Below, piece by piece: positions 1,997 through 58,350 of a stretch of 64,000 nucleotides of DNA. The notes under the pieces were generated by a model. It searched no databases and was not told the origin of the DNA. It worked only from the letters and a program-made list of their open reading frames with translations. The position numbers were made by a program, and so were the translations under genes. The number at the start of each line of letters is the position of its first letter. The first letter of the stretch is position 1. Source of the stretch: Cyanidioschyzon merolae (taxonomy: Eukaryota); NCBI GenBank assembly GCA_000091205.1, contig AP006486.2; one strand, 5' to 3'.

Positions 1997-4600
1997 TCAT
2001 GCGACAGTCGTCGGGCTTTCTTGAAGCAGATCATCTCCCTGCAGCAGATGCTCTGCAGCTTCCAGCACCTGTTCGTATCGGTAACGCCCCTGCAAACAGC
2101 CGAACAGCGGGTGCGCCTGTAGTTTCATGGATAGTATCTTTGGTGAGGTGGCGCCCCATGCGAAGCGAGCCAACAACCGCGAGCAAGTGCGTAGCACCGG
2201 CACTTGCACAATGAGCTGCTGCCATTTCTCGTCCGCGAGTACTGCATTCAGAGACTCCAGTTCGGTACTGCCGCCATTGAGGATGCGTTCACGAAGACGT
2301 TCCATTCCGGGCGTTTCACCCAGCGCACCCTCTGCGGCGAGACATAGCTCACAGCGACCGCACTTGTGCACCAGAATCTCATTGTAGTGGGCGCATAACG
2401 AGCGGGCAAAACAACGAGAGCCCCGGCTCGCAACCCATTTGTTCCCCGGCCTAGGTTCTGCTCCGAGGAAAAGCGCCGCAGTGGTGCGAATCCGAAAAAG
2501 CTCTTGCTGTTCACGTCGGAGCATGGAGCGGTAAAGATCGTCCGCAAGCTGCTGCATATCACTCGGCTTCGCCACAATACGAAATACGTGATACAGATGG
2601 CTGAACTTGATACTTCTAACGATACCCAAAGACTGGAGAAGCTCGAGAGCAGAGTAGACAAGTTCCCGGGTGGTCGCTCCAGACGGCACGGGATGCGCAA
2701 ATGCCGCCGTTCGTGCTCGCACGACATCGTGGATATCGATCCGCATGAATAGGTTGTTGTCGCTGGTGCGACGCCGGCCAACCTTCACAGACGGATTCAA
2801 GATGAGCCGGGCCGCTCGCCAAACCCCTTCGGGCACAGAGACATCCCTCCTCAGGAGGTGCAAGGTCTCCTCGACACTCGTATTCGGCAGGAGATCGACC
2901 TCGCAGTGAGCGTAGTAGGCAGTTTGTTCCTCAATAAATCCTCCTTTCAAATCCAAGAAAGCAAGCAAAACCCGAATAGTAGTTTCCTCAATATCCAGCG
3001 CTCTTCCGCAGTTAAAGAAAGAAAGCGCCACCTGATCTTCGCGCACAGCGATCTTCTCCATGTACCGAATGTTCGGGCTTTCGGGAGCGTTAGCGCTAGC
3101 CGTCATGTGCTCCTCCGCGAGACCTACAGTGCTGCCAAAAAGCGACTCTAGAAGCGTATGAACAGCTCGGCGAGATGGGGTGCTGCTCAGCACAAAACTC
3201 TCGAGGGCGGGCAGATCATCAGCGCAGAGGAAAAGTTCACAGATGGCGGGTTCTCCATCGCGCCCCGCGCGTCCAATACTCTGTGTGTAGGCCTCGATGC
3301 TCTTACTGATGTTAAAGAGGTAAACGTAACGGACCTCTTGCTTGTGAATGCCCATTCCAAACGCGATAGTGGCCACAATAATTGTATCTCGCCCGCTCAT
3401 GAAGATGTTTTGGGCCGAAGCTCGCTCCTCTGTCGTCATGCCGGCATGGTAGGCAACCGCAGGAAGGCTGTACATGGTGACCAGGAGCTCCGCCACTGCC
3501 GTCGCAGTCTTCTGCGTCGTGACGTACACGATGGTGCTTCCGCGCGGTCGGGACAGCAAGCGTTCCACGAGTAAGAATACCCGCCGCTCCAGGCGCCCAT
3601 CCTTGTCGGTATCGGGTGACCAGGTTCCGAAGAATTCGCCTACAGGCGTACAGCGTAGCGTCAAGTTCGGCCGGTGCACACTCGCACGGATCACGTTCTC
3701 AGAATGGATATGGAAATGACGACAGATGTCGTCTACAACGCGTGTGGTCGCGGTGGCGGTTAGCGCCAGACAGACTCTGGCACCCGCGCCCTGAGCGAAC
3801 TGCCGCAGGAGCAGATACTCGGGACGAAATGTGTGGCCCCATTCGGAAAGGCAGTGCGCCTCGTCGACGACGAAGAGTGAGACCTGCAGTCTTGCAATGA
3901 CTTGGCGGAATTTCTCATTCACAAAGCGCTCGGGTGCGACGAACAGAATGCGTATGGCACGTTCACTGAGCAGCCGATAGGTTTGCCGCACCTCTGGGGC
4001 CGACATCCCTGAATGAATATGCATCGCTGGGATACCCTGGTTCTGGAGCATCTCGACATGGTCACGCATGAGGGCGATAAGTGGAGAGACCACCAGCGTC
4101 AGTCCATCGAGCAACATTGCAGGGACCTGGAAACAGAGCGATTTACCGCCGCCAGTGGGAAATATCGCCAACGAAGAGTGTCCCTGTAAAACGCGCAGAA
4201 TCACTTCTAGTTGGCCCGGCCAAAACTCCGATAGACCAAAGTGCTCCTTCAGACACTTCATCGCGCGCAGTGCCTGAGCCTCCATATCTGATGAGCCGTC
4301 TCCAGCGCTCTGACTCGGAGGCGCTCGCGGAGGCGGTGGCTGCGGCCTCTGGTAGGGCGCACCTCTCGCCCCAGAAGCGGACTGCCAAGGCGTTCGTGTG
4401 CCGCGCTTTGAAGCGCCGGCACGACGGTACTCTTTCGGGAAGAACTTGTAGCGATCATAGTTTGTTGCATCCCGACAGACAAGGGGCTGTCGCTGAGCGT
4501 TCGATCCGCGGGCTCGTTGACGCTCACCAGCGGCGAGCTCCTGCCATTTATGTACCAGCGCGTTGTGGATAAAACCACCGCATTTGCACAACGCCCACAT
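1997..4600 (-). CDS. RecQ-family ATP-dependent DNA helicase. The helicase core begins at Met 4285; the ORF stays open upstream to 4600 as a Pro/Arg-rich N-terminal extension.
   Basis: Motif I FPTGGGKSLCFQVPA, DEAH box VVDEAHCLSEWGHTFRPEY, and motifs TATAT and YVYLFNISKSIEAYTQSIGRAGRDG in the 867-aa ORF. The C-terminal region carries a Cys cluster (CAHYNEILVHKCGRCELC) rather than a canonical HRDC domain. Confidence 0.8.
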   Translation of the reverse strand: MWALCKCGGFIHNALVHKWQELAAGERQRARGSNAQRQPLVCRDATNYDRYKFFPKEYRRAGASKRGTRTPWQSASGARGAPYQRPQPPPPRAPPSQSAGDGSSDMEAQALRAMKCLKEHFGLSEFWPGQLEVILRVLQGHSSLAIFPTGGGKSLCFQVPAMLLDGLTLVVSPLIALMRDHVEMLQNQGIPAMHIHSGMSAPEVRQTYRLLSERAIRILFVAPERFVNEKFRQVIARLQVSLFVVDEAHCLSEWGHTFRPEYLLLRQFAQGAGARVCLALTATATTRVVDDICRHFHIHSENVIRASVHRPNLTLRCTPVGEFFGTWSPDTDKDGRLERRVFLLVERLLSRPRGSTIVYVTTQKTATAVAELLVTMYSLPAVAYHAGMTTEERASAQNIFMSGRDTIIVATIAFGMGIHKQEVRYVYLFNISKSIEAYTQSIGRAGRDGEPAICELFLCADDLPALESFVLSSTPSRRAVHTLLESLFGSTVGLAEEHMTASANAPESPNIRYMEKIAVREDQVALSFFNCGRALDIEETTIRVLLAFLDLKGGFIEEQTAYYAHCEVDLLPNTSVEETLHLLRRDVSVPEGVWRAARLILNPSVKVGRRRTSDNNLFMRIDIHDVVRARTAAFAHPVPSGATTRELVYSALELLQSLGIVRSIKFSHLYHVFRIVAKPSDMQQLADDLYRSMLRREQQELFRIRTTAALFLGAEPRPGNKWVASRGSRCFARSLCAHYNEILVHKCGRCELCLAAEGALGETPGMERLRERILNGGSTELESLNAVLADEKWQQLIVQVPVLRTCSRLLARFAWGATSPKILSMKLQAHPLFGCLQGRYRYEQVLEAAEHLLQGDDLLQESPTTVA

Positions 4601-6283
4601 ATAAAGTCACACAGTAACGCCAGCTCAGTTCCAACTCGTCGATCCTACTGCGTTGCGGGCATTTTGCTATGTTCGGCCGTTTACGACACCGAAACTATGA
4701 TGAACGCGACCTGCGCCTAGCGCTGGAAGCGCGTCCCACGGCATCGTGGTACTGGTGAGGTGCATTCTCGACAGCGCGTTGAACAGCAGCACTTCTTTGA
4801 GTCGTTCAACTCAGGTTTGTTTCATCACTGCTGGAGCGTATAGCAGGAGATCGGCATTACGATGCAATGTAGTGTATATATTGTATACGATTTGAATGTA
4901 GGATATATGCTTTACGGAATTATGCACGGAGGACTACGTTCCTCCTTCAGGTCAGTCGTACCCCAGTACTCTGACAACTGGGGAACACTGAAAGGAGCAA
5001 TTATATGTGCACAGCGGTAAAAACCGATACTCTCACAACCTGCTTTGGTTCAGTGGTAGAAAACAACCCGTGGATCAACTTATAGGAAGCAAAAGCGACG
5101 ATTGTAGATAACACAAGCGTCACTGTGCCTCAATAGTTTGTTGGTATGGTACTGAAATCACTGGGATAACGTCACATTAAAAGTCCAATTTCATTCAGAG
5201 CCATCTTCCTCGGACGTCACTACGACAGAATTCCCCGAAAGACGCTATCGATATGAAGCACAGGGACATCGGTTTGTTCTGTCAGTCGATGAGACGTCTT
5301 TCCCACGAGACCGTCCCAGCATATATCGGTATTTGCCGAGAGGAAACCAATTGAATATAAGATCGAACTCGAATAGAAGGCTCATACCACAGCATTCCAT
5401 TTATCCAACCATTGATGACGCTTTCCACGTCTGACAACGTCCTTCTCTTGCACATCGTTGCCTTTCATCGTTCCCTTCGCATTCTTGTTTTTGCGAGTTC
5501 TATCTTCCGGAACTCCTTCTCCCTTGCTGAAAGGTCCTCACCTAAGTCCATTATGAGAGGCGTTCATTTTAAAGCAATAAAAAATCCGTGGGATAGAGAT
5601 GGACATGGAATTCGAGGATTCTGGAGGGCACCAATCGCCAGATTCGACAAAGAAACGAAAAAATTTTCTTCTCGCTGATCATCGAGTGAAGAGGAGCGAG
5701 TAACGAAGAAGAAGAGAGGAGATAGACGAGAATATTTGTTTGCCCGACGGAGCGACGACGAGACCATTGTGGCACAGAGGGCACGAGTTCTAGGAATTCT
5801 TGAATGCATGAATTCGACCAGCGGCAATATATGCAAGGAGTTCATGAACTGAGACTTCATGCCAGCCGACAAGATCAGGAGATGAGTGGGACTGAAGCCG
5901 CAACCCGAAAAGGTGACGCGACTGAATTCTATGGGACAGCCTCCCAGACTCCAATTGTACCTGGATAAACTGAAACCGATACCAGGTGGCCGCTCGAAAA
6001 AGGGAGACGTCTGCAGATCGATATTCGGTTACGCTACGAGATCGTGAAACGTTCTTCGGCTAACCGTACCCCTTGAAGGCTTTCTCTGAGCGTGTGTACA
6101 GTGCACTGTGACAGCCACCACGGTGCTGACGAGTGCACTAGGAAGCAGTTTACCAGCGAAGTTTTGGAGCAGAGCTTGACGTACGAGCTCACTCGAGAGC
6201 CAGCGTGCTCTGATTCGCTAGTGGCTCCTGGTGCACCTGGAGCGTAATATTGAATAGAGGCTTTTTAACGAAAGCGCCGGGTA

Positions 6284-8589: not shown

Positions 8590-9110
8590 CAACTCGCAAT
8601 GAGCGTACAAGGAATGCGCACGATGTTTTGTCGCAATACCGATACTTGAGTTCCGAACGTCGTATACACACCATGAGTTGGGATGTACACTTCAGAGGGT
8701 CGAGATGGAAAAGTGCCAGAGGAGTCCTGAGGAAATAGCAAAGTACGGACCGCTGACGGAGGAGCAAATGGAAAGGAGGGCAAAAGTGCGAGGACTTCTT
8801 GCACTGGTGAGTACAACGAATGATCGCAAGAAATGGATGGAGTTTGTGAATTGAGATTTTAATGCCGCTATCAATATCCGGAGATGTGCGGTGCTGGAGA
8901 GAAGACCTCCAGAGTCGACAAGACAGAACTTTGTTGGACACCCTCTCAAAGTGGAACTGCATGAGAAAAAATTGGAACCAGTAGGAGGTGGCCGGTCGAA
9001 TAAGAGTGGGAGGCGTCTGCACGACAGTTGGTGGCTTCTTGCCTAGGGCGGGCTTCTCGCCACTACTGTGCACTGCCGGCAGCAACGTTTTTCTTTTGAA
9101 AGGCATTTGT
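8590..9110 (+). pseudogene. 3' fragment of the TnpB/Fanzor-like element family (copy b), frameshifted and stop-containing
   Basis: Nucleotide and translated homology to 12530-13060. It encodes RTSYTHHELGCTLQ..KYGPLTEEQMERRAKVRGLLALVSTTND..FNAAINIRR..LETRPP..GGRS, interrupted by stops. It ends with the family-conserved tail ctagggcggg...cagcaacgtttttcttttgaaaggcatttgtt. Confidence 0.5.
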
Positions 9111-9140
9111 TGCTCGTGGGTGTGAGCGCCCGCAAGTACC

Positions 9141-9803: not shown

Positions 9804-11716
9804 AAGTATGCTCCAGACATGCGTCTTTATGACAGCGCTATCGATATACCTTGAGTCGCTGCCTCAACCGATATGCGCCTGGCATGCTCAAGCACTTGCA
9901 TAGATGCCAAGTGCGGAACCTGGTGTTTTCGTTGCTCCAAGTCGACTTAGGGTTCCGGTGGAAGGTGCTCCTTCTGTTGAAAAGCGGACGTACACTAGTA
10001 GCAGAATTCAAATCAGTTCCTTATTCCAGCGTCCGTGCGGCATGCATAACAAGCAAAGGGAATAAACGTATATCCGTGCTTGGGAACACTACCGTACCTA
10101 GTTTGTCTACGATCAATAATACTAACGAAACACTTAATGACTAGTGTGACGCATACCTCATCCGCCCAAGCGTAAGCCGCAGCGAAAACTACGCGTGTGC
10201 TGGAGTCATCGAGGGGTTTCGTGCCGGGCCCCAGCGACCCGTTGTATTACAGGGCGGTACTGCTATGGGCAGTAGTGTCGGCACCAGCGACAGAGCCTAG
10301 CGCAGGGGATCACTCTATGTGAGTTTCCGATCTAGGACACCTGATTTCCGCTGCAGTGCGTCGGTGAGAACACGCATGTGCTAATGCGACGTCGGACACG
10401 TGTCCTTCATCGATCCGTGTAGCGTCTCGCGAGGTGCACGCATCGCGCTCAGTGAGTGCACCTGGCAGAACTGGCACTCAACTGACACGACGCGCATGCC
10501 GCCGCCGTTGAAGGGAAACGCAATCTTGATCTCTAGCGTGTAGCTCTAACGTAACAGTTGTATTTTCGTTAATTTCATAGCCAAGTATAGTTTTCAGTTC
10601 GATTGTGTTTCAACCCTCAAGTAAAAATATTCGATTGATTTGTTGCAGTATATAACAGAAGCGTTTAAAGAGGTTTCTTTTTCAAAAAAAAGACTGAAAA
10701 AGGAAAGTTATGGAAAAGCAAGTCGATGATCCTGGAGCTCAGTGTCGCTGGTTGCCAGAAAAACAAAAAAAAACAGTGCCGAGTCCAGAAGAAAAGGAAG
10801 AGAAAAAGAGGCAAAAGGGGGATGCCCTACGTCGAAGGCTGCAAGAAAGACGACTTTACGACGAGATGATGGTGGAAGCCTGCCTTCTTCATTATATCGG
10901 AGATCCGTAGCAGGCAAACTTGCGAGACGCTATCAGAAACCGTGTCGACTCATACTCCAAGAGTATTGTCAAGGCGTCTTCAGGACTGATGCATGTAGCA
11001 ATGGAGGTGTATCGCGAAGTAACGGACATCGACACAGTCAAGATTCCGGAAGATTTTTTCAACAAGACATTTATTCGCCACCTTATCTTTGGTACAGGGG
11101 AAACGTCGAAGAGAAATGAGCGAGTGCATGCCCTCCACTGAAATCACCCCGAATACCGCTTCGATCGTACTCGGTTCAGGGGAGACGGGCATATTTACAC
11201 CTCCGGTGCGATGAAGTACCTCACGATCGTGAAGAAGCACTTGACGATGAACCTGGAACGTTTCATGACACGCGCCGTGTTTGTGCTGTGCCCGGGCCTC
11301 TCTCGCAAAGGAATATGGGCGGTTATCAATGGCATCACGAACGATAGTAAGAGCGAAAGAGAGATCGAATTCATCGGCAAGAAGCCGTCACGCAGGAGCA
11401 CAAATGAGGATTCCGTCATCCGTGCGGTCATAGAAGAGCACCGTGCAGTCTTGGGGTTGGCGAATCAAACAGACAAGATATCAGAGTTGAAAAAAGGATA
11501 GGGAAAGATACTATCGCCTCATCCTGCGCTATTTCGTGTTTCTGGACCGAGGGCTATAACGCAAGGCAGAGGTGCAGCTGAGTGAGGGAAAAAAATGAAG
11601 AGTGGGAGAGACGGAAGGCTGTCCTAATGGAGAAGCGCTTCAACGTGGTTCCAATGTGGAAAGTCAAGTCACATTTTGTGACTATCGACTCCAGCGTCCT
11701 TTACGGCATCACCTAG

Positions 11717-12226
11717 GAGATCAGTCCGGAGTTCATTGTCAGCAGGGAGAACTTCACCCGCGAAAACCTGGAGACATACTGGAAGAATATCTTCAATTTC
11801 AAACGTCTGAGAGTGAGCAAGCAAAAGTTGTTCACTGGGATGGTCGAAACCGATGGAGTAGCCATGTGTGTACACTATCGGCGGTTGAAGAAAGACCGTC
11901 CAGTTCCGCCCTCGGCTGCGCCCGTGACGAAGGATGAAGAAAAGGAGGAGGCGGATCCTGCAACGCAGGAGGTAGAGAATAACGACCTTGTCGTTGATGC
12001 GGCGAAGCATGAAGATGAGAAGGAGGCGGGTCCTGAGACGCAGAAAGTGCAGAATAACGACCTTGTCGTTGACGCGGACCCTGGGAATACGAATATCATA
12101 ACCATCGCTGTACCCAAACGTGCGGAAGATAGCACTGACGGTAACTTACGTCAGAAAGACATGCGTCTGTTGAGACTCTCGAGAGCGAGATACTATCGCG
12201 AATCCGGTATAATGATTCTAAGGTAG
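11717..12226 (+). CDS. Fanzor/TnpB-like ORF segment carrying the RuvC-I motif and a 25-aa in-frame tandem duplication
   Basis: Frame-2 open stretch: ...[21 protein letters not shown]...[55 protein letters not shown]...[11 protein letters not shown]. The track ORF 11813..12226 starts at a GTG. Confidence 0.5.
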
Positions 12227-12250
12227 AAAATCGAGACGAAGAATGCAGGA

Positions 12251-12990
12251 ATGAAGGATCACTTTGAGGCTTTGAGCAAGGTGATGGGCCGCGGAGCGGA
12301 CTGTAAAGCTTTTCGGAAATTCATGAAAGTTCGCGTTGCTCATTGGGATGCCTTGTGGGAGGAGTATGCCAAGCCCCGGTGGGTTCGTTTGCGTGTGAAT
12401 CTGTATTGCGGGAAGCAGCGTGCATTCGCGAACTTTTTCAATCAGTTGAGTGCCCTGAAGGAGGATGAAAATCAGAGGCTCGTAGTAGCGTATGGAGCAG
12501 GGCGATGGAAGACCCAAAAAGGGACTACGCCAGCTCCAACGACAAGAACGTACAAGGAGTGCGCCGGGCGTTTCGTCACGATACCTGTAGATGAGCTCCG
12601 AACATCGTATACACACCATGAACTGGGGTGTACACTTCAGTGGGTCGAGATGGAAAAGCCTCAGCGGAGCCCCAAGGCTATAGCAAAGTACGGACCGCTG
12701 ACGGAAGAGCAAATGGAAAGTAGGGCGAAAGTTCGTGGATTGCTTGCACTAGTAAGTACAACGAATGACGGCAAGAAACGTATGGAGTTTGTGTACCGAG
12801 CTTTTAACGCCGCTATCAATACACGGAGATATGCGGTGCTGGAGACGAGACCTCCAGTGTTGACACGAGAGAACTTTGTGAGACAACCGTTTAAAGTGAA
12901 ACTATATGAGAAACAATTGGAAGCAGTAGTTGGTGGCCGATCCAAAAAACTGGGACGCGTCTGCACTTTAGTTGGAGAAGTTTTGTCTAC
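12251..12990 (+). CDS. Fanzor/TnpB-like ORF segment holding the RuvC-II/zinc-finger/RuvC-III region. The natural stop is mutated (TAC at 12988-12990 where the other copies have TAG), so the ORF reads through to 13201.
   Basis: KQRAFANFFNQLS, LVVAYGAGRWKTQKG, FVTIPVDELRTSYTHHELGCTL, GLLALVSTTNDGKKRMEFVYRAFNAAINTRRYAVLETRPP and GGRSKK motifs. Copies b and d terminate with TAG at the homologous position. Confidence 0.5.
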
Positions 12991-13152
12991 GGCGGGTCGC
13001 TCGCCATTACTGTACACTGGCGGCAGCGTTTTTCTTTTGAAAGGCGTTTGTTATCGCTGCCGTGGCCAAAAGAAACTTTTAAAAGCGATCACGAGGCTTG
13101 ACCAAGACCGCACAAAGGCGACGGCTTGTGAGCAACAACAGAGGTGCTCTTC

Positions 13153-19930: not shown

Positions 19931-20496
19931 CGATACGAACTGGTACCCTGCCGGACGTGCTAGCCGTTTGCAAAGCGTCGCCCATCGCTGGTGATATCAG
20001 CGCGAACCTGAATCCGCTGCATCATGTGCGTTTCAAGATGATCGAGTAGCAAGCACTGGTGCTCATGACACGTCATGAAAAGCATCGCCTATTATTATGA
20101 TCGCTTTCGCGACCGAAACGAGGTGCACGATATGCGATCCATGCATGAGCAGCCTTTTTCAGCAAGTTGCTCGCATGAACGCCATGCGTGCTCCGCCTGC
20201 TCCCCGAATGCACTTCATCTCGATAGCAGATACCTGATGCAGGCGGAGAATTTTAACGAATCCATGCCTCTTGGCTGCAGGCATAGAAAGAATCCATTGA
20301 GACGCTCGATTCGCGTGCGAAACGAATCATGCAACACGATTGTCTCGAGCGAGTTGCCTCAGCAGCCACGTCCATGAAATGCAGCGACTGTGCGTCATCT
20401 GAGGAACGCAAATCGCCAACAGCTGTCTGGAACGCGGGCGACGCGACATTGGTGCGAGCGCTGGCTGCGCATTCTAATCACGGGTGCAGGCATTCA

Positions 20497-20753
20497 ACAT
20501 TGTGCGTGCACTGCTAGAGGATATTATATGCGTGTCCAGCATTGTGCATGCACTGCTAGAGGATATTATATGCGTGTCCAGCTTTCTGCGTGCACTTCTA
20601 GAAGGATCATACATGCGTGTCCAGCTTTCTGCGTACAAATCTAGAAGGATCATACATGCGTGTCCAGCTTTCTGCGTACAAATCTAGAAGGATCATACAT
20701 GCGTGCTCAGCATTGTGCGTGCACTTCTAGAAGGATATTACATGCGTGTTCAG
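20497..20753. repeat. Minisatellite: about 6 tandem units of 42-43 bp in two subtypes
   Basis: Units cattgtgcgtgcactgctagaggatattatatgcgtgtccag (subtype A) and ctttctgcgtacaaatctagaaggatcatacatgcgtgtccag (subtype B), arranged A-A-B'-B-B-A'. Each unit contains two TGCGTG motifs. Confidence 0.8.
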
Positions 20754-21835
20754 GAGACCACGAGGTCGCGCGTTACTTGGGTATACAGAAGGCTAGATTA
20801 CGCGCCCGTAAGGGCTGCAACATATGGAAATGCAACAACAGCACCACAAGCTTGATGTACCCTACGGGAGGCGATACTCAGAGCGCGTGCGATTGATGAC
20901 AAGAATGTATGGTGCTTCACCTGCTCTGAACTAGATGCTATCCAAATTGGCATTTAGTGCTCTGTGGAGCGGCGGATCTATGCTCTGCCTACAGACTGGC
21001 TAGTTGGCACTGTACCGAAACAGGAATCATACAGTATTTCGCATCGAAAAATAACCTACCATCTACCATCAAGAGTGGATGCGAGGCTGCACAGCAACAG
21101 GCCCTGTTGCCGCGCACCAAGCGCGGACTTTTTGCGGCTGCGCCATGTTATTTGGAAACTCCAAGACCTTGCGCCTTTTCCTGCATATTTACTTAGAGCA
21201 TGGACGTACTCTTGGACGCTGGTGCAAGTTGTACAGGTGGCGTGAGCGCGCCGCGGGGGCCAGCATTGTCGTCGACCTAACCGCCTATCCTCTGTAACAT
21301 GAGACACTTTCAGCGGAGCCCGGTCAAGACGCTGTTGCCAGCCTGCGCTTCGCCCTAGAGCACGTTCTCAGTTGGAGATTCGGAAAACTGCTTCGAAGAC
21401 CAGCCGCTTCGATTTCGTTTGAGCCACGCCCAACACCATTGAACTGAAAGCGCTCGTCCCGGCATTCGTCAAACGCTGTAGAAAAACGAGAAGAGCAGAC
21501 CAGCTCACGGACTCGTGTGTTTGCTTGGGTACCAGAACACCTCCGTATGAGGGCATGATGCGAGCTGGGTCAGGTGACGTCAAGCGGCGGCTGCAGCGCC
21601 CTTTAACAGCGCCCTCCCAAACGAACGCGTAGCCAATGTCCAGGGGTCGCGCCTCCATCCATTCCTAAGCCTTGACCTCTAGTCTCCGTGCACGCAGCCT
21701 CGATGCTGAAGGCTTTTTTCTTCAAATTCTCTACAGGGAACCAAGTATAGGAAAGGTTCAGTCCTACTCGTTTCGTTTTGATCTGTCCAAGCAAGTATCG
21801 CTCGTGCGGACCAGCCGAGGCACCGCCGAGCCCGG

Positions 21836-28326: not shown

Positions 28327-28551
28327 TTAGGTCGTCTTCAGCACCACACATCGTCTAATGTTGATAGCAGCGTTGAAGACTCGGTGGACAAAGTCCGTGC
28401 GTTTATTGCCGCGGCTTGGACTCATCCATTTAAGGATTGTTAGAACTCGTTCCTTCAGTGCGACTACAGTCTCGTCATCGTGCTGTCGGACAGGCGCCAA
28501 TTCCCGTGTATCTCCCCTTTTCTTGGTCCTCTTCGCGCGATGGTAGGCCAC
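28327..28551 (-). pseudogene. Short fragment of the TnpB/Fanzor-like family (copy c), holding the RuvC-III-like region and truncated by a stop
   Basis: Translates to ...ERVLTILKWMSPSRGNKRTDFVHRVFNAAINIRRCVVLKTT*, homologous to GLLALVSTTNDGKKRMEFVYRAFNAAINTRRYAVLETR of copy 1. Confidence 0.45.
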
Positions 28552-34184: not shown

Positions 34185-34715
34185 GTGCAGTGACATGGAC
34201 TCGGTGCCGATGCGCGAACCGCAGCGGATGACAGCAGCGTCGCTCTATGACATGGCATTGTGCTTCGTCTCTGGGTCCAGCGTTGGCGAAGTCAAGTCGG
34301 CGACGATTTCGTCGAGAACGTGACGGATGTTGTGCTTGTGTGCAAGCTTCAGATGTACTGGGCCTCGTGGTTACCAGCAGAACGCAGAGAGCGCTTGTAT
34401 GTTGGCGCTCCACAGCGCCGAGTGGATGAATCCGAAGGCTTTCGGGTGACGCAGCGGCGCCACTGGCGGCCGCCTTGAGCGTCATCGGCAGTAGGTACAC
34501 AACGCGGTGGGTGTCGTTGCAGCGCGCGAGGTTTTCTGATGGTAAACGCAGCACATAGTATGCGCCCTGGAGACTTGCTGGTGACCTGAAGCACCGCGTT
34601 GGCGATGTGGATGATCAAGAGTGGATAGACCATGCTTCAGCCGCGAGCAGCTGGTCCGTGTTTGATCCGCTCTGTATCGTTCAAACTCCATTGTTCTAGA
34701 CCGGTGGATGGCGAA

Positions 34716-35718
34716 TATTCTCTCTGAATTAGCGAATAACGGAAGACTACACTCGTTCACAAATTCCCTAGGAAAATACTTGCCAGTGTACATATATGCG
34801 GTGCTCTGGTTGTTCAGGTTCGCCGCACTGAACCGCTTCAGGGCGCTGAGCTAGGCGGGGATCCATTCCCGCTGCCCCTGGCATATGAGTCGCTATCGTC
34901 GACAGTTCCCCAGTGTTTAGGTGTCATGCCTATCTGGCGTACGAAGCGATGTTCGTGGTAGCTCGCTCCACAGAGCCTCTCGCGACGCTCTGGATGCACG
35001 ACACTTTGTCGGTTGTCGATCGAGACGTTCAAGCGTCGGTGCAGAGAACGCCTAGCGCCGTGCGCTACCAAGTCCACGACCCGACGTGTCGTTCATTTCC
35101 GTTCCCAAACCGGTGCAGAAGCTTTCTCTCGATTGCACGCTTCCTGGCTCCGGATGACCGAGACCGGGGCGACTCCAGCGCCGTCGTCATGGACGTCTGC
35201 CACGGGATGCTCGTGTGACCTCTCTGGAAGCTCCTGTACGGACTGCATGGAGCGTGCAAGGCATCCCGCGCTGCTCAGCCCGGTGCGTAGCGTGTCGGGT
35301 GAGCACCCGGCGCCTGCATGTTGCTTCTTTGTATGCCACGTGGCGTCCACAGCGCTCGACTTTCGAAGATTCCGGGCACAGGTCGAGCTGAGCAGCTCCG
35401 TCTGGTTTGCTGGTCAGGCGTTCGGCTCCGTGCTTTTGGTTGCTCCGTGTGCGGCGACAGCCGTGAAGCGCCTTACCCGCGGATAAACGCTGAAACCAGA
35501 ATCTTTTTCCTGGTCTACCTGGATCGGTTGAGAAAGAGTCTCGTTGCGCACCGCTGGGCGAGGCCTCACCAAGTGCATCCAGACTGATGGTTTGTCGCTC
35601 TGCATGCTCCCGCAGACCGTTCTTCATTTCCTGGGAGTAAACGAGAAACATGGAATGAGCGCAACAGACGCTGTTTGCGAATCTGTTCCAATGCATCGTC
35701 GTTTCTTGCCAAGACCAG
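34716..35718. repeat. Copy 1 of a dispersed/direct repeat about 1.0 kb long
   Basis: About 99% identical to 40064-41068 (about 8 mismatches per kb in the segments compared). It begins atattctctctgaattagcg and ends ttcttgccaagacca, with no recognisable coding domain. Confidence 0.8.
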
Positions 35719-38136
35719 CTGCAGCTCACAGAGAAGGCCGTACAGGCCGCTGCGCCAGTGTGTGGAGTACGCGAACAGGCATTTATGTAGGACAGGGGCA
35801 CCACATCGAATAGAAGCCCGCTGAGCATGTTATGCTGGCATACTATGAGCGCGTCCGCTTTAAGCTTGAGTGCTCTATTCATGAAAGCATATTCGCACAA
35901 ACTGTTGCGAAGCCGCGGCAGCCATGTCAGCTACCCTGCGGGTAAGGAGTCGAAAGATCCGTCATCCTGAGCAGCGCAATGAACTTGGAGAATTCGCTGC
36001 GAGTCTCGCTCTCATTGCGAGTTCTCTGTGGAACTCGGTACCTCCTCGATGTGTCGCGTTACCAGCGCGTCATTGACCCCCCATGGACACGCTCAGGAAT
36101 CCTTGCCATCAGTTCCCATTGTTCACGGTCAGCAGCGTATGCATATAATGCCCAGTGGGTGCGCCTCATAAAGCGCTTCGACACTGACCTGCTTATGCTT
36201 TTGGTCAGTGAAGCTGGATGGATACTTTTGGCAGCTGCCCTGTACCGCTTTTTTCGATCACCGACAAGACGCAGCGATGTGTCAAGGTATGCTCAGAGGC
36301 GTTTGCATGAGAATCTGATCCTCCGATCAGGCCGTCTTGTATCCCCTGTAACGAGAATCAGCTGTGCTGCTTCACAGAGGTCTGATCGAAGAATTCCAGG
36401 CGAATATGACCGGTTGGCAGCGCAGTGTCCAGAACTCCTCCGAAGACCTGCTCGGCGACATATGTGAAGACGAAAGCACCGAGGCGTTCATTCGTTGAAT
36501 TAGAAGCTGTACGATCTCGAATGTTTTTCCTGCATTGTTTCGTGTCATTGGTGCGAACAGCTCATCTACGGATCCGGAAGCGGAAAATTTGCATTCGACA
36601 TCATCGAATCAGAGAGAATATACGAGAACAATGTGCAGTTGAGCGCCAGTCCTAAACGTGTACTCCATTACTGCCATTCTATGACGTAACGCAATGTTTT
36701 CCATGAGCAGGACAGAATAATGTTCGAATGAGAAGCCACGAAGAATGGTTCAACGATAATGCGTTGGTATTGAAAGGGCCCGGGCTTTGGCCTTCTGAAC
36801 GCGACTCCATGAATAAATCGCCACTGGCGCCTATGTCGTGGTAAAACGCGCTTGTCTCTTCTCTTCGAAACAGCGCTCGATCGCCCTTCGAATATCTCTA
36901 CACAGGTGCGCAATTCTTCCCCAAAGAAACCTCATAGACAGAGACGAATACCCGTCGCTCCTGTACTTATCGCTCGCGTTTCAGTTCGAAATCGCTGGAG
37001 TGTTGTTCACAGCGTGACGAATTCGTGTAGCAGTGCGCTTTTTTACTCCATCCTTCCGTGTCTCTTCAACACCATTCATATCACTGATACGCCAAAATCA
37101 CATTTTATGGCCTCGTCGTCAGCATTCTTAGAGAATGTATGGAGTGGGACCGATTGACGGGGACACGGTTGTCTAGATACTGTTTGGTTTGGTGAGTTTC
37201 CGGCGCTCTACGTTCAGAGCGGGGATTTCGACGAGACTTGTGGTTCATCCACCAGCGAACCGTAGCATACGTGACTTGGAGAGACGAAAAAGTCTTTTCT
37301 CGCACGCTTGCAGTGACTGCATTCGCGCTTTTCGTGACCGTTCTTCAGTCTACGGGAAATCATTTCACTGACTACCCGCGAGAAAAGCAACCAAGAACAA
37401 AAGTGATCTGCTCGTATATCCAGTCTAAAAAGTACTTTTCTGTGTATAAAGCGGCCTGATTCGCTGGTACGATCATCCGCTCAAGTTTCTGCATGAAGCT
37501 TCCACAACGCAGTTTCGATACATGCATGGATGCTAGCCGCGGATGTGGGCACTGTAGACTCGGACAACTAACTGGCAGAGAGCGATCGAAAATCCTCTTT
37601 AAAGCAAGTGGGTGTATGGTGATGGTGCTTTCGATAAACTGCGCTGCAGGTTCAGCGAGGACGCCACAGGTACCGGTGACCGCTGACGCACCTCTTACCG
37701 AGCGGCAACATCTTGTGCCGCGTGCAGATACTTTGCTGGTGACGCTGGAGATTTCGCTCTGGTTCCTATTGAGTGAACGATACAACGCTTGCTTTTCAAT
37801 CCAAAAAGCAGGTCTATGGGAAATTCCAGCAGGTCTGGTTTTGAACCGTCATCCTAGTCCACTGCAGCATCGAGTTCCGCAATGTAATGGAGTATATCCT
37901 ATGCTTTCGCGTACGCAGATCGTGCCCTAGTCCAGAGACACTGGCCTGCTTCAACGGCCGTCCGTGGTGCGTCACAACCACAGCGGGAATATCGTTGCCG
38001 ACTATGTCCAGAACATAGCGTCCAGGGCTGGCCCGGGCACCCGTGCAAATCTGCTCCATTGCCATGATGCCACGCGCAACAACACTAGTGATGTAGAGCT
38101 CATAAAACGGTAGTGTATCGCCAGCGCATCCCTCTG

Positions 38137-39737: not shown

Positions 39738-40063
39738 GCGGCGGAAAGCGCGGGCTTTGCCTTCCGACCTCTACCAGGTACGTCGAGAGCCTGGTACCAG
39801 GTTACAGCGTTAACGCGACCAGTTGCAACCTTTTGGCAAAGAAGGTGACTTGGATGAAAAGCTACAGACTAATTTCTTTCACCAAATAATACGTCCTAGA
39901 TACTGGGGTATCCTCTACGGATACCCAAGGGGAAGCAACAAGCGAGCGTCCCGGGCTATCTCTAGCACGAGCCGGTGACGTAGACGTGCCGCCGGGGCGC
40001 GCACCTTGCCCCCAGATACGTTGTTGGCGCTGTGGATCCCGATGCACGGCTCCATACGGAGAT

Positions 40064-41068
40064 ATTCTCTCTGAATTAGCGAATAACGGAAGACTACACT
40101 CGTTCACAAATTCCCTAGGAAAATACTTGCCAGTGTACATATATGCGGTGCTCTGGTTGTTCAGGTTCGCCGCACTGAACCGCTTCAGGGCGCTGAGCTA
40201 GGCGGGGATCCATTCCCGCTGCCCCTGGCATACGAGTCGCTATCGTCGACAGTTCCCCAGTGTTTAGGTGTCATGCCTATCTGGCGTACGAAGCGATGTT
40301 CGTGGTAGCTCGCTCCACAGAGCCTCTCGCGACGCTCTGGATGCACGACACTTTGTCGGTTGTCGATCGAGACGTTCAAGCGTCGGTGCAGAGAACGCCT
40401 AGCGCCGTGCGCTACCAAGTCCACGACCCGACGTGTCGTTCATTTCCGTTCCCAAACCGGTGCAGAGGCTTTCTCTTGATTGCACGCTTCCTGGCTCCGG
40501 ATGGCCGAGACCGGGGCGACTCCAGCGCCGTCGTCATGGACGTCTGCCACGGGATGCTCGTGTGACCTCTCTGGAAGCTCCTGTACGGACTGCATGGAGC
40601 GTGCAAGGCATCCCGCGCTGCTCGGCCCGGTGCGTAGCGTGTCGGGTGAGCACCCGGCGCCTGCATGTTGCTTCTTTGTATGCCACGTGGCGTCCACAGC
40701 GCTCGACTTTCGAAGATTCCGGGCACAGGTCGAGCTGAGCAGCTCCGTCTGGTTTGCTGGTCAGGCGTTCGGCTCCGTGCTTTTGGTTGCTCCGTGTGCG
40801 GCGACAGCCGTGAAGCGCCTTACCCGCGGATAAACGCTGAAACTAGAATCTTTTTCCTGGTCTACCTGGATCGGTTGAGAAAGAGTCTCGTTGCGCACCG
40901 CTGGGCGAGGCCTCACCAAGTGCATCCAGACTGATGGTTTGTCGCTCTGCATGCTCCCGCAGACCGTTCTTCATTTCCTGGGAGCAAACGAGAAACATGG
41001 AATGAGCGCCACAGACGCTGTTTGCGAATCTGTTCCAATGCATCGTCGTTTCTTGCCAAGACCAACCG
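40064..41068. repeat. Copy 2 of the 1.0-kb direct repeat
   Basis: About 99% identical to 34716-35718 and in the same orientation. The two copies are separated by 4.3 kb containing the NDUFAF7-like gene. Confidence 0.8.
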
Positions 41069-42136
41069 CTAAAAGAGCGGACGATATCCACTGGCAAGCA
41101 ATTCGATACCAGTGTCGTTCGGCCTTCATGATAACCGTTGGAAAGGAGGATACGATTTCCGTATCTTCCAACGTTTGCCTTCTATGCCGAAGTGCCCGTG
41201 TGCCGGACGAGTATGCTGGGCCAGTGCTGCATGCTGCCCCCAGGGGTGGGTGCAGTTGCGCCACCTGAACAACTCGCCCGCAATGCAGTTGATTCTCGGA
41301 TTCAGGGCAGTTCGGGTGTGTCTCGAAGTCGCCCAGGTTGCAGTTATCTCCTAGTACACCGCATCGCGCTGCCGCATGCAGTAGGTCTGTCTGCGCAGTT
41401 TGCAGGCGCCCAGAATGATGTAGAGTGCCGACCCCGTGTCGGATGAACGACGCCTCGAGCCGACATGCCCATTGGTATGGCAACGCTGCTCTGTCTTTGT
41501 ATTGCATCCGCACTTGCGGTATAAGCGCTACAACGGGTGCAGCACTGCATGCACTCGGCGCGAGAGATACCATAACAAACGACCAGTGTATCCTAAAGAA
41601 AGTATGGGCCATGGAACCTGAAGGTACAGTGCGTCATGATGAATACGTTCCCGAATGCCTATATCCCTCATTTGATCTTGGGTATACGTTCAATGTAAAC
41701 CTTTAGTCGAACAAAAAATGGAAACGCTGCATAGGTGAATGAATAACGCAACATCCGCTCAAACCGTGCTACTGGCCGGCCAGTCTCCTCCGGAACGCTC
41801 ACATCATTCTATCAAGAGAATAACGATTGTGAACACACACTCGCCATCGACGGGCTTCCAGTCTGGCTCAGCATGGTCCCGTTACCATAACCCAATCGTT
41901 GCGTCTGTGCTAGTTTTCAACTTTCACTTGTTCAGCGCGGTAGTTTTCTCAAAAAAGTGCGCCGTTTCCGCTACGCCGAGCAGTTGCGTCACTCTCAGAG
42001 AAAAACGGTCGCAAGTGTAGGCGAGGCGTTTGTAACTGGACCACGTGTCCGGGGAGTGTCTGGCACCTGGTCTGTGGGGCGACTCCCTCAAAAGCTACAG
42101 CGGAGTCAGCATCAAGACTGGTTGCGTGTCTCGAGG

Positions 42137-50607: not shown

Positions 50608-53600
50608 CTTGAGGGCGTCGAATCCCCAATCACATCATGCAGTTAGGTATTTGGCTGTTTTGTGCGTCGGTATTCTCGGTTCACGCATCATGGAGCATGC
50701 GGGTGACTGGAGGCTCGTGATACATTCGCATGTGTGCGCATGAAGACGTGTGGGCATTCGGACTTGCAGGATCGACGCAGACTCGCGTGCGTTGGTGGTA
50801 GCGGCTTTCATGGGATGCAGCATCATCGTATGGTGCCAAGCGAGCCATCTTCGTTTACATGAAGCGATCGTTGCATGGATGGATCGACAGGTGTCTGATA
50901 TTGGAAGCGGGCGACGAGCGGGCGCTCAATGTCCCGCAGGACTCCCGCTCGATGTCGATCTGTAGCTGGTGGATATCTCGCAGCCGCTAGCGTCCTGGGA
51001 GCTACAGACAGCGAGTATGGAGCTCGTGATCGGCTCGAGGGCAGGCGCGCCTGCCTCCGGTCGTGTCTAGCGGTCGCTGGGCGTATTCCATTCAAGTTCA
51101 GCGGAAACAGTGCCTCGGGGGTTGTTCTCCAAAGCTCTCTGAGTAAAAAAATCATCCATGGTCGTGCGTTCTTGATCGAATGGAATGGTGTTTGCACTGA
51201 TTCGTGATCTATGAAAGGCGTGTCCAGAAAACAGGACACGTCACAGGGCTGTGAACGGTTCCCACGTGAAAATACACAAGTTTCCGGGTATTGGAAAGTG
51301 CTGCGCAGACAGTCACCGTGATTCGTGAACGTCTCCAGAGAAGCATCTCGTTCGTGTGTCCGGGGCGAGAAGCTGCTTGGGCGCGCGACAGCATTTACGC
51401 TGACGCATGCGTGGCCAGAAGCGTCGATGTTCTTGGCTGAAATGCTCGGCACGAGTCGGGCTCAAGTCTGGCTCCCTCGATGCCAGGTCGAACGTTATGC
51501 GCAGAACGGGAAAATCTGGAACACCTGGACCAGCACGCCACGTTTGCCTTTCTTGAGGGTATTCAACGAAGGCGTGCATCCTGTAACTTAGAGAATGCCT
51601 GACGGCTTTCTTTACGATGCCATTGCTAGCTTGCGAATATCTGATCGAACTTGTACAAGTAAGGCATTCCATCGTCGGCAAATGGATGACCCATCGTTTG
51701 CGGCGTCCGCATACTCCATATCGTTCGCTCAGAACGGAACCAGTATAAATCTATTCACAGGATTGTGTGCTCGTCCATCGGAGCCAATCCATTGCTTTTC
51801 TAAGAACTACCACGGAATAAGCCATATGATGTGAAGTTTCCATATAGTAGAGACGACCAGTGATGCAGATACGAATGGACAAGTTAAGAAACACGCTAGT
51901 AGTCGCACTGGTCGCACGTTGAGCAACACACGATCGATTCCGTACTGAAACGCGAACAGTTTGGGCACGACAGACGGGTATTCATCTCGCTCGATGAGAT
52001 TCTATTCCGCAGAAATCGTACATCTGCGTGTGGATACTCAACGAGCGGCAATGCAATGTTTGCAAAGAAGACACAGGCGAGCTTCGCGACTCTACCAGGC
52101 CAAGCGGCGATGTCGACGGGTGTTCGCATACAAACCTTCAAACAAGAGGAGCGTTTCGCACTCGATGCGTCACCTAAGCAGTCTTCGTGCATTCGCCTTC
52201 CCACATTCTTCCGTCCTGCTCTGAGATAACGTCGCTTTCCATCAATCTACACGGTAACGGAGATCGTAGCTGAGACTGTTGGTAAGCGAAACTTGATGCC
52301 AGCCTATGCTCAGTGGTTTCATCCATCCGGGCGCGTCTTCTCTATCGTCAAACGCCATTTTTATGTTCGACGATCAATAGACGAGTCATTCGAATCTGGG
52401 ACCCCAAACTTCTTCGACAAGTCGTTCTCTAGCTCCACCAGCCCGCAACTGCGCAGTTGCTTCTCTGCTCGTGCGTGCTTGGGGGTGAAAGGCCAGCTCT
52501 GGTCCACGGGCGTGCTCCCGATGGAGGAAATGACGAAAAAATGCGAGGAGCTGTAGATATACACCCAGAAGAGGCGAGTCTCGGTGGCAAAGTCCACCCA
52601 GTGCGCACGGGCCGTGGCAAAAACGAACGGATATACCGTATACCGACCGCGTTCCTGCCAAACCGCCAAGTAAACGAGAAGAAGAAGAAACCTCCGCATC
52701 ATGAAGAGAAAGATCCTCCTAAAGACAGTACGAGCATTGAGAGAGGGCAAAAAGTGTGAGGCCAGAGGGATTCGTCAAATACCTCTGTCGAGGACGCTCT
52801 ACGAAAATCCATCGACGGGGAACGTTTCCCGGAAATGTGATACAGCAAGGCACCAGTGATCGTAGAGTCTTGTCCTGGAGGAATGCTCACGCAGCGCCTC
52901 TCGACTTGAAGCACCTGGTAATGCCATTGTCCATGCGCGTTCTGAACGCCGGGCTTCTAGCTGCCTGCGCTCCTCTGGATTTTTTCAATCAAACCGTTGT
53001 GCAATTTCTGATGCTGGGGATAGATATTGTGAGACGGACTGAGACGCTCAGGGCTCGATATGATCCCGAGTTGGACGTGGCAGACGCCACGGGACAAACC
53101 AGCGAATAGTAGGTCGGCACCAGGACCCGTGCCAATGCCCCGAACCCTGTCCTGGACAGAGGCGATGCTGCATACGCTTCATTCAGAGAGTACATGCGGG
53201 TCCAGATTTTTCGACCAGACGATCTTTGCTACAAGGACCGGAGAGCATGCTGGCGTCCTCAACAACCGATTCCGTTGCTCCATATCACGAGGCGGTCACT
53301 CGCCAACCTCTTCATTGAGATGAAGAACAACAGCACCGATGCGTCGCGTCGTTTGCTCGAGACCTCTGACGCGGCACGTTTCGGAGAGCGCAACAGCTTC
53401 ACGTTTGTCCCTTTGATGGACGGGTACAACGCGTGCAGGGATCGGTGCTGCACGATGCCCATTGATGGCTTCGGAGCGAGATTCACACATCTCGAGCGCA
53501 AACTGGCGCTGAAGCGGGCATCCAGGGAGAGCGTAAAGCAGCGACACATCCACGATGTGGTGTCCGGAAGCATGACCGAGCGTCAGCCTGCCACGAAATC

Positions 53601-54841
53601 GAAAGCGAGTAACTTGCCGAGCTGGGACTCTACCAGAAACCATGTGCACAAGTCCTTTTTTCTGCGCAGAGACTTGAACGCCTCAGTGAACGCCAGAAAC
53701 TATTTTGTGCTTCCGGATTGATCATCGAGTTTGCATTTTTGGCGGTCATCATGTCATTCACCAGGGTGGTACTTGGATGAAACGCCGAACCCCTTCGATG
53801 AACTCATCGGTCGCCACGAGCGACAGACTTCCATCCCGGCCTGGAACGAGGTACGCGTACATGATGGAACGGCACGGCGAACGCTGGAAATCCAGCACAC
53901 CCGGATCTCCGTCTCTGGACACTGGAAAAGGCCCCGCATGCCAATGGGTGCACTTTCATGGCGCTCCACGATTCACCATTACCGAGTACGTAAGTAAAGT
54001 ACTGACATCCCACTTTACTTTTTTCGAAATCCTCCGCTGCACGAAAAACATTGCTTGTCATATGAAACCTCCAACGGCTTCTGCCTCTGATGCCCATATG
54101 CCAGGAGTTTCTCTGCTTGCTCGATGATTTTCCTCTAGCTTGCCGACATCATACCTCCATAGATGCAATCCTGTGTCGAAATCAACACAGTCGCCGCATC
54201 CCATGTCATCAAGCGGGTGCGTCTTGTCGCTGCACGACGCTGTGCTGGCGGTACGCCTCGAACACATACGACCCGACTCTGGTTTGCAAGGCGCTGGCGG
54301 CCGTCGCCAGGTCCACTCGTGCATTGCCAGTCGCCAACAGAGACAGCAAGTTCTCGTTCGGAGCGCAAAGCTCGATCGGCGACCTCTGCTGGCTATCATA
54401 TCAGATGCTGAGGACACAAAGTCTAGTGCGCATGCCCTTCATCGGAAGTATTCCGCACGCTATAATGACCGGCATGCTCCCAGCATCTGCCATGGACCTC
54501 GCAAGCATCGAGAGCGCTCCGGGAGCCGTTATCGGGTTTTTGACTTTTCCGAAGCGCACTTCGCGCTTGTATCATTCCAACGATGTACCTGCGTGTGTCC
54601 TACCTGTAGGTAGCACAGCCTATGTTTCGCAGCTGCAGTTCCTTACCGAGCAGCACCCAAGTTCCAGGAGACGTTGCAGGCAAAACAAAGGGTGAGATCG
54701 CGGGCGCTCCAGGGGCAGCGCGTCTGCGATCGAGTCGACAATCGTCAGGGAGCGGCTCGGTGTCGGCATACGCCCTGATGCAAACACGCTTTTCGTTTGC
54801 TTTCGGGAACTGTGGACGTTTTCATCTACACTGTGTCGACG

Positions 54842-57523: not shown

Positions 57524-57560
57524 CCCAGTGAGCCACGCTCTCCCCTGCACCGCACACCAA

Positions 57561-58350
57561 CAACGAACGCCTCAAAAGACAAAAGTTGCTGCAGGCAGTG
57601 TACAGTAGTGCGGAGAAACCCGCCCTAGACAACTCGTCGCCAACTGACTTGCAGACGCCTCCTGGTCTTTTCGGACCGGCCACCTACAACTGATTCCATC
57701 TTTTTCTCATATAATTCAACTTTTAGAAGTTGTCCCACAAAGTTCGCTCGTGTCGACGCTGGAGGTCTCGTCTCCAGCATCGCACTTTTCCTTATATGGA
57801 TTGCTGCGTTACAGCCTCGGTTCATAAACTCCATTCGTTTATTGCCGCTGGTGGAAGTCACCATTTTAAGGAGTCCTTGAAGTCGTGCCTTCCGTTCCAT
57901 TTCATTTGCTGTCACCTCACCGTACTTTTCTATATCTTCTAGGATTTGCTGGCTCTTCCCCGTCTCGGCCGTCTGAATTGTACGCCCCAGTTCATCCCAT
58001 AATATTTTAAAATCAAGGCACTGCTTTATGCATTTAGCTGAGGACATTCCCGGAGGAGATAGCACTTGCGCAGAAAGGACGACAGGTGCCCCGGTAGTGT
58101 TGTATGCTGAGCGCTTCAGCGATTCGCTCCATGCATCGATCGATACGTTTCACGATACAAAACACTCCCTCAATGGGGTAGACCAACGGAAACCACTAAA
58201 GAATGAAAACCAGCTCTATCCAGACAGAATCGGCAAGATCTCGAACGCAACAGGAATGATGAAATGCCAGTTTGTCCCGTAGAAGGACGTCGTTAGACGT
58301 CAGGGAAAAGGGACCCTTAATTCGACAACGTGGTTGAACCTGTTGTACGA
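57561..58350 (-). pseudogene. Diverged, stop-interrupted 3' portion of the TnpB/Fanzor-like family (copy d)
   Basis: Minus-strand translation ...FYGTN..PVAFEILPILSG*..FSGFRWSTPLRECF..*..SSAKCIKQC..KYGEVTANEMERKARLQGLLKMVTSTSGNKRMEFMNRGCNAAIHIRK..LETRPP..GGRSEKTRRRLQVSWRRVV*. A conserved tail follows the TAG (57561-57624). Confidence 0.5.

Follow-up and report, generated by a model that had tools for sequence, protein, structure and literature searches.

A non-coding tail at the right end of CMe-1-type Fanzor1 elements in Cyanidioschyzon merolae: a probable relic omega-RNA scaffold

Introduction

What is the short non-coding sequence that follows a decayed gene family at three places in a 64,000-nucleotide stretch of DNA (here, the window) from the red alga Cyanidioschyzon merolae? 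A first inspection of the letters by themselves, referred to below as the sequence-only reading, placed this tail directly behind the family's stop codon, likened the genes to TnpB/Fanzor elements, and proposed that the tail is an omega-RNA scaffold or a transposon end that is more constrained than the coding region it follows.

Fanzor1 genes of this organism have a published history. Bao and Jurka described CMe-1/CMe-1A as a Fanzor1 element of C. merolae in 2013 (PMC3627910), and list CMe-1A as a 3169-bp unit of about 150 copies with both ends defined, no terminal inverted repeat (TIR) and a 734-aa protein (PMC3627910). Their paper predates the discovery of omega-RNA and gives the tail no role (PMC3627910). 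Every Fanzor1 locus characterised since uses the region past the gene for omega-RNA (PMC10432273). SpuFz1, for example, is a single-ORF element of 2.1 kb whose transcripts take in 14-15 nt of flanking sequence (Saito et al. 2023, PMC10432273). The first stem-loop of the RNA (SL1) has 7 bp and is conserved in the three solved Fz1 complexes, and the stretch that separates SL1 from the guide varies and is regarded as unconstrained (PMC11423790).

In this study, we examine the protein family, the element boundaries, and the conservation and predicted folding of the tail. The family was followed into JGI metagenome contigs, where 464 loci were found and 80 were fetched. Tails were taken from all loci and orthologous copies were collapsed by their flanks into 47 flank groups, 46 of which were aligned; the remaining one, L075, has lost its tail and was dropped. 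Family-wide identity is given as the mean pairwise value per column over these 46 independent insertions, and positions with a plus sign are counted from the first base of the stop codon.

Results

Three tails, three dead elements

A tail profile run with nhmmer against the 64-kb window gave exactly three matches (E = 1e-20 to 4e-14), at 9044-9117 (+), 12989-13058 (+) and 57627-57556 (-). The shared sequence is thus present at the three places where it had been noticed, in each case after the family-wide stop codon, which is indeed TAG in copies b and d and TAC in copy 1. The original location was correct and the extent was slightly short, as similarity continues a few bases further; because identity reaches background (0.27) only past about +76 among the 46 insertions, the best tail ends are 13063, 9119 and 57550. 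The tails accordingly occupy 12988-13063 (+) in copy 1, 9044-9119 (+) in copy b and 57550-57627 (-) in copy d, each forming the right end of a dead CMe-1-type element. Their resemblance, put earlier at 85-90%, was measured slightly below that, at 0.81-0.87 pairwise over the first 62 nt and 0.78-0.84 over 76 nt.

On the plus strand of copy 1, the former stop codon TAC (12988-12990) is followed by stem-loop 1 (GGCGGG at 12991-12996, loop TCG at 12997-12999, CTCGCC at 13000-13005), a linker that starts ATTACTGTACAC (13006-13026), the apex of stem-loop 2 (SL2; CGTTTTT at 13027-13033, loop CTTTTG at 13034-13039, AAAGGCG at 13040-13046) and a G/T-rich terminal segment (13047-13063). Copy b, on the same strand, has TAG at 9044-9046, stem-loop 1 at 9047-9061, a stem-loop 2 apex at 9086-9105 in which one G-to-A change breaks one pair, and its terminal segment at 9106-9119. 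Copy d is on the minus strand; its tail begins with TAG at 57627-57625, carries a mutated 3' arm in stem-loop 1 (CTCCGC) and a 2-nt deletion in stem-loop 2, and its terminal segment, ...GTTGTTGGTGTGCGG, ends at 57550.

All three copies in front of these tails are dead, their ORFs being truncated or frameshifted and the RuvC-III Asp being lost or preceded by a stop codon. Copy 1 is nearly full-length (9996-13063, +). Its body, 9996-12987, consists of a subfamily-specific 5' head (9996-10441) and, from 10442, the core common to all subfamilies. The ORF (ATG at 10711) is degenerate and split across three frames, and with TAC in place of the stop it continues to 13201; it keeps the RuvC-I motif ADPGNTNI but has another residue in place of the RuvC-III Asp (YRAFNAAIN). 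Copy b (body 8601-9043, +) is 5'-truncated to the last ~112 codons of the Fanzor ORF and has an in-frame TGA two codons ahead of the RuvC-III Asp-Phe-Asn. Copy d (body 57628-57995, -) is likewise 5'-truncated, to the last ~88-120 codons, with the RuvC-III Asp replaced (NRGCNAAIH). The Asp of the RD motif has become A in copy 1 and G in copy d, and in copy b a stop codon precedes it. The figure of about 50% protein identity once given for copies 1 and d does not stand, being inflated by pseudogene decay and drawn from a fragment, the last 88 aa, in copy d.

Since all three copies are dead, the tails in the window are relics. At most they could serve as 'ghost' guide-RNA genes whose product an intact copy elsewhere might use in trans; a fully intact ORF was found in none of the 80 fetched loci.

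Several other traces of the gene family were seen. Just upstream of the RuvC-I motif, copy 1 contains two units of a 75-nt (25-aa) coding tandem repeat (11928-12077), which also occurs in P0030, P0114 and L080 and reaches up to ~5 units in other copies. A C-terminal Fanzor coding fragment of 29 aa (59% identity) lies without a tail at 28336-28422 (-). A divergent Fanzor-like relic at 52945-53712 (+), 27% identical to residues 513-764 of the CMe-1-type protein, ends ...RRDLNASVNARNYF. Directly upstream of it on the same strand is a relic of a DDE_3 (Tc1/mariner-type) transposase gene (51918-52448, +), and this gene order, DDE_3 followed by the Fanzor-like relic (51918-53712), is that of the distant relatives L084-L086.

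The elements belong to the Fanzor1 family CMe-1

Single ORFs from the window had no Pfam or PDB match, and the family was linked to Fanzor1 only through a profile of its distant full-length relatives. The family is large, with 223 close homologues and 1382 representatives at E <= 0.001. A profile built from 25 full-length relatives matched the solved structures of PpFz1 (9cf0, Parasitella; E = 4.6e-17), SpuFz1 (8gkh, Spizellomyces; 5.3e-11) and GtFz1 (9cer, Guillardia; 3.8e-5), with the DE[FY][RK]TS and RD.NAA motifs aligned in these matches, and three of the 25 relatives matched the Pfam family Cas12f1-like_TNB. The Fanzor family suggested by the sequence-only reading is thereby identified as Fanzor1. 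Against the Fanzor1 motif, D-X(125,275)-[TS][TS]-X-X-[C4 zinc finger]-X(5,50)-RD (Bao and Jurka 2013, PMC3627910), the family consensus has ...EKC and NRDFNAAINIRR, and only H, H, C, C at the position of the zinc finger. The host is eukaryotic, as the window holds long intron-less genes of eukaryotic type (ABCC, ABCG, FANCJ, steroid 5-alpha-reductase), the FANCJ helicase having its best named matches in Cyanidiococcus (52%) and Cyanidium (38%).

Judged by sequence comparison, the window elements belong to the published CMe-1 family. Copies from the window and from the metagenomes align collinearly with the CMe-1 protein (734 aa, MEKEVEDPGGPVSPAAGKKRKTVPSPEE...). Over its first 980 nt the CMe-1A consensus is 74-83% identical to more than 30 of the fetched loci, beginning from consensus position 1-6, whereas copy 1 aligns with it from consensus position 662 onwards (81% over window 10458-10783). 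As its first ~450 nt, the 5' head at 9996-10441, differ from the CMe-1A head, copy 1 was placed in another subfamily. At the other extremity the consensus carries the tail. It ends ...TAGGGCGCGTTTGCCGCCACTACTGTACACCGCTGGCGGCAGCGTTTTTCTTTTGAAAGGCG, which means that the first 62 nt of the tail are already part of the published sequence; the consensus stops at +62, whereas the pairing and residual similarity described here reach about +76.

The left side of the element is heterogeneous, the common core (window 10442 on) being preceded by at least five alternative heads, of which the CMe-1A head is one. Parts of the CMe-1A head occur separately and in either orientation beside many Fanzor cores in the metagenome loci. 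In the window, a solo CMe-1A head lies at 41072-41708 (-), where the first ~640 nt of the consensus (74% identity), preceded by a T-rich run, stand without a Fanzor ORF or tail.

The tail is the right terminus and is conserved as a mosaic

The similarity of the 46 independent insertions stops at about +76. Over +0..+61 the tail has an identity of 0.68, rising to 0.80 in the linker (+18..+30); the segment +62..+75 is the least conserved part, at 0.40, and beyond it the value is 0.27, which is background. From this drop it follows that the repeated unit ends about 76 nt past the first base of the stop codon, and that the tail is its true terminus, a non-coding right end. Its position at a transposon end, as first proposed, is thus confirmed.

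The accompanying argument, that the tail is under stronger constraint than the coding sequence, fails across the family. Codon positions 1, 2 and 3 have identities of 0.83, 0.85 and 0.72 and fourfold-degenerate sites 0.69, as against 0.68 for the tail, so that with more copies aligned the tail is equal to or below the rest of the element, an outcome which the sequence-only reading had itself counted against its proposal. Inside the window the claim holds weakly: compared with the 300 nt upstream, only the b-d pair is nominally significant (0.867 vs 0.734, Fisher p = 0.018), the values being 0.807 vs 0.747 (p = 0.21) for 1-d and 0.847 vs 0.819 (p = 0.38) for 1-b.

Within the tail, conservation is a mosaic in which the outer SL1 arms (GGCG/CGCC) and the linker are near-invariant and the loops and terminal segment drift. 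The best-kept blocks sit 45-75 nt inside the element end.

Just ahead of the point where similarity ends, the final 12-17 nt exist in a small number of versions among independent insertions: TTTGTTTCCAGGGGT in five, TTG[AT]TGGTG[CT]GG in eight, TTTGTTGTCGCTGCCGT in three and TTTGNTGNTCGTGG in three. Each version is common to independent insertions that diverge immediately after it, and its length is about that of a Fanzor guide. The ordinary reading is a fast-evolving element terminus that differs between subfamilies. There is a slim chance that these nucleotides are a guide carried with the element, or that copies land at guide-matching sites; the guide would then be heritable and not just any sequence that happens to lie beyond the right end.

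A solo tail, with 22 nt of coding sequence attached, was seen at 2028-2126 of locus L040 (the same as 2029-2121 of L036). About 15 nt downstream of it is a sequence block which, in five independent loci, is found ahead of a complete element, an arrangement which suggests nested or tandem insertion beside an older right end.

The tail is predicted to fold into two hairpins on the sense strand

Single-sequence predictions gave a recurrent fold, in which an SL1 hairpin (GGCGGG-NNN-CTCGCC) one base past the stop codon is followed by a conserved linker, CCACTACTGTACAC, then by SL2 and the G/T-rich end; the hairpin ggcggg-tcg-ctcgcc singled out by the sequence-only reading is this SL1. SL2 exists in two types. 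Type I is CGTTTTT-CTTTTG-AAAGGCG, extended by GCAGCAA/TTGTTGC, and type II is GCGTCGTTCGA-CTT-TCGAACGGCGT, shifted in register by 3 nt, so that two subfamilies form SL2 from different sequences in different registers.

Among seven 76-nt windows, the tail was the most structured (mean z = -1.48, mean MFE -26.6 kcal/mol, z below -2 in 35% of copies), the coding windows having z = +0.6 to -0.8 and MFE -14 to -20 kcal/mol. The predicted fold is biased towards the sense strand (-29.8 vs -24.6 kcal/mol for antisense, Wilcoxon p = 1.4e-6). In the proposed structures, 81% of type I cells pair, versus 47-56% with partners slid, and 71% of type II cells, with slid controls of both types at 38-56%; the inner hairpins pair in ~89% of cells (type II inner hairpin 89%).

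SL1 generally has 6 bp and a 3-nt loop, with 7 bp in L064 and in the relative L084. Its outer 4 bp pair in ~90% of copies and its inner 2 bp in ~50%, and in the variant GCG...GCC, found in ~40% of copies, the inner two pairs are unformed. In L084, the closest distant relative with flanking sequence (46% protein identity), a perfect GC hairpin of 7 bp, capped by a triloop, lies 7 nt past the stop codon.

When 80 nt of upstream coding sequence are included, about half of the MFE folds exchange SL1 for a long-range helix. This helix, between coding -68..-60 and linker +16..+24, appears in 25 of 46 MFE folds (-80..+76) and was rejected as a conserved element, as substitutions in the linker are never compensated. 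In copy 1 the corresponding sequence CAGTAGT(G)G (window 12920-12928) is complementary over 7-9 nt to linker CCACTACTG (13004-13012) and competes with SL1. In the last codons, GGCGTCT...AGACGTT forms a candidate hairpin whose arms pair in 80% of cells, with no notable double-sided changes. Searches of Rfam gave no gathering-score match in the window, and around the tail only two matches at chance level (E = 0.38 and 0.49).

Covariation does not exceed that of shuffled alignments

The sequence-only reading had counted a lack of covariation-supported structure against its proposal, and for SL1 as for both structure types covariation did not exceed that of shuffles. The observed score was reached by 33 of 500 shuffles for SL1 plus the candidate coding hairpin (46 sequences), by 313 of 500 for the whole type I structure and by 139 of 500 for type II. 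RNAalifold on unrefined MAFFT alignments returned 0 pairs for the 46 sequences and 7 for the type II subset. Double-sided changes are few (SL1 GG/CT to CG/CG, GC/GT or AG/CT; AAGCGTG/CACGCTT in L064), and many pair changes are toggles from G-U to A-U or G-C. An outer extension of SL2 to the very end of the element, at first taken as co-varying, was rejected because cognate and non-cognate arm energies gave p = 0.11 and type II pairing was at background (53%).

Discussion

We consider the tail to be, probably, a relic omega-RNA scaffold that overlaps the right end of the transposon. This interpretation draws on homologous architecture, on thermodynamic structure and on strand bias, and not on extra conservation or covariation; of the reasons offered for it by the sequence-only reading, the family (now Fanzor1), the terminus and the hairpin have stood and the constraint argument has fallen away. 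The position is that of an omega-RNA, on the sense strand from the stop codon to the right end (about +76 in 46 insertions). As the right end of a known Fanzor family, and most likely its former scaffold, the tail is an expected feature and no surprise.

In an active element, the sense transcript of the ~76-nt stretch would, once processed, constitute the scaffold, with a 6-7-bp SL1 right after the stop codon, a single-stranded linker, a longer and plastic SL2 and a short G/T-rich 3' segment in that order. The transcript would continue for ~15 nt into the flanking DNA, and this extension would act as the guide. The Fanzor nuclease is predicted to bind SL1 and the scaffold-guide junction, and to cut DNA that matches the guide.

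This predicted layout, a stem-loop directly past the stop codon, a linker and a variable second hairpin, resembles that of characterised Fanzor1 omega-RNAs. Much as in the Fz1 structures, a conserved SL1 (here with GGCG/CGCC arms) is combined with a plastic part before the guide (here SL2). SpuFz1/Spu-1 and the CMe-1-type elements are both single-ORF units of 2-3 kb with a variable flank beyond the element end, and in both the tail is kept in copies that are 5'-deleted or lack the ORF, namely the 'ghost' loci of Spu-1 and, here, copies b and d and the solo tail of L040. The systems differ in that the published SpuFz1, PpFz1 and GtFz1 RNAs have no detectable sequence similarity to the tail, and that SL1 in these three has 7 bp and longer loops of 6-7 nt (7 bp and 6 nt in SpuFz1) than the 6 bp and 3-nt loop of the CMe-1 type. 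Spu-1 has 30-nt inverted repeats, whereas the CMe-1-type family has none. For SpuFz1, experiments have established expression, binding by the protein and a CATA TAM, whereas the CMe-1 type is known here from its sequence. The likeness extends to the omega-RNA (reRNA) of TnpB in IS200/IS605 elements, where the scaffold also lies at the 3' end of the nuclease gene and at the transposon right end, the guide is drawn from the flank and the protein has a RuvC fold. The TnpB system differs in being bacterial and in having a longer scaffold that overlaps the ORF by 100 nt or more. IS200/IS605 elements move by the TnpA Y1 transposase, which uses hairpins at both ends, and no TnpA was found here.

Could the tail instead act purely as DNA, recognised by a transposase as the right end and with no role as RNA? 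The enzyme would be of the Tc1/mariner DDE_3 type, or a single-strand (IS200/IS605- or Helitron-like) one that reads a top-strand DNA hairpin. The tail is after all the terminus of the repeated unit, a strand-biased hairpin near the terminus also fits single-strand transposition, and Mariner, Helitron and other transposons are known to carry Fanzor1 genes (PMC3627910). A DDE_3 gene lies directly upstream of the Fanzor gene in L084-L086, though in these distant relatives only, and tblastn with their transposases found degenerate DDE_3 relics scattered in the window at 4888-5495 (+), 36582-37359 (-) and 58091-58850 (-) (E = 1e-13 to 1e-16) and a short fragment at 63336-63535 (+) (E ~5e-4); the relic at 58850-58091 (-) adjoins copy d, directly upstream on the same strand. 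However, the terminal inverted repeats and TA duplication of Tc1/mariner elements were not found in the Fanzor element: the tail has no inverted-repeat partner at either candidate left boundary, where local alignment scores did not exceed shuffles, the published description of CMe-1A lists no TIR, and neither a TA nor any other target-site duplication was seen in the flanks. No transposase was found inside the variable 5' heads. Moreover, conservation is lowest (0.40) in the last ~14 nt, the very stretch in which a site for a transposase would be expected to be best preserved. We therefore think a role as DNA only unlikely, and the two functions need not exclude each other, the right inverted repeat of SpuFz1 lying inside its omega-RNA scaffold.

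Equally improbable, in our estimate, is that the tail has no function of its own, its similarity reflecting recent shared ancestry and its hairpins being inherited accidents of one ancestral sequence. Such an account would explain why tail identity equals that of fourfold sites (0.68 vs 0.69) and why covariation does not rise above shuffles, and an edge over slid controls is to be expected when the structure is derived from the consensus itself. It fits poorly with the mosaic of near-invariant SL1 outer pairs and linker beside drifting loops and terminal segment, with folding z-scores distinctly lower than in any neighbouring window, with the sense-strand bias and with two different sequence solutions for SL2; the use of this region for omega-RNA in all characterised Fanzor1 loci (PMC10432273) argues against it as well.

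An ordinary 3' UTR element of the Fanzor mRNA, with hairpins that serve in stability, 3'-end formation or translation control, would suit a sense-strand structure immediately past the stop codon, the U-rich runs of SL2 and the 7-9-nt complementarity of coding -68..-60 with the linker in 25 of 46 MFE folds, but it is very unlikely given that the element ends ~76 nt past the stop codon without a recognisable polyadenylation signal, that the long-range helix shows no compensatory change and that homologous systems process exactly this region into omega-RNA.

If the tail is indeed a former omega-RNA scaffold, the eukaryotic RNA-guided nucleases gain a lineage of Fanzor1 from the Cyanidiophyceae (red algae) whose scaffold is compact (~76 nt), and a specific RNA becomes available for use with a reconstructed CMe-1 protein. 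As the host is thermo-acidophilic, such a pair could interest those who seek heat-tolerant editors. For annotation, three conserved non-coding blocks are explained as relics of a known transposon family; the finding neither opens nor closes a long-standing question.

Other features of the window

Three observations concern other parts of the window. A direct duplication of at least 790 nt, at least 99% identical, occupies 34715-35500 and 40062-40847, with starts 5347 nt apart, and may reflect either recent segmental duplication or an artefact of the assembly. At 20495-20774 there is a tandem array of about six copies of a 42-43-nt unit, 67-95% identical. Finally, the RecQ-type helicase gene at 1997-4600 (-) has bacterial and not eukaryotic proteins as its nearest named homologues (38-40%; Planctomycetes, Gammaproteobacteria) and was possibly acquired horizontally.
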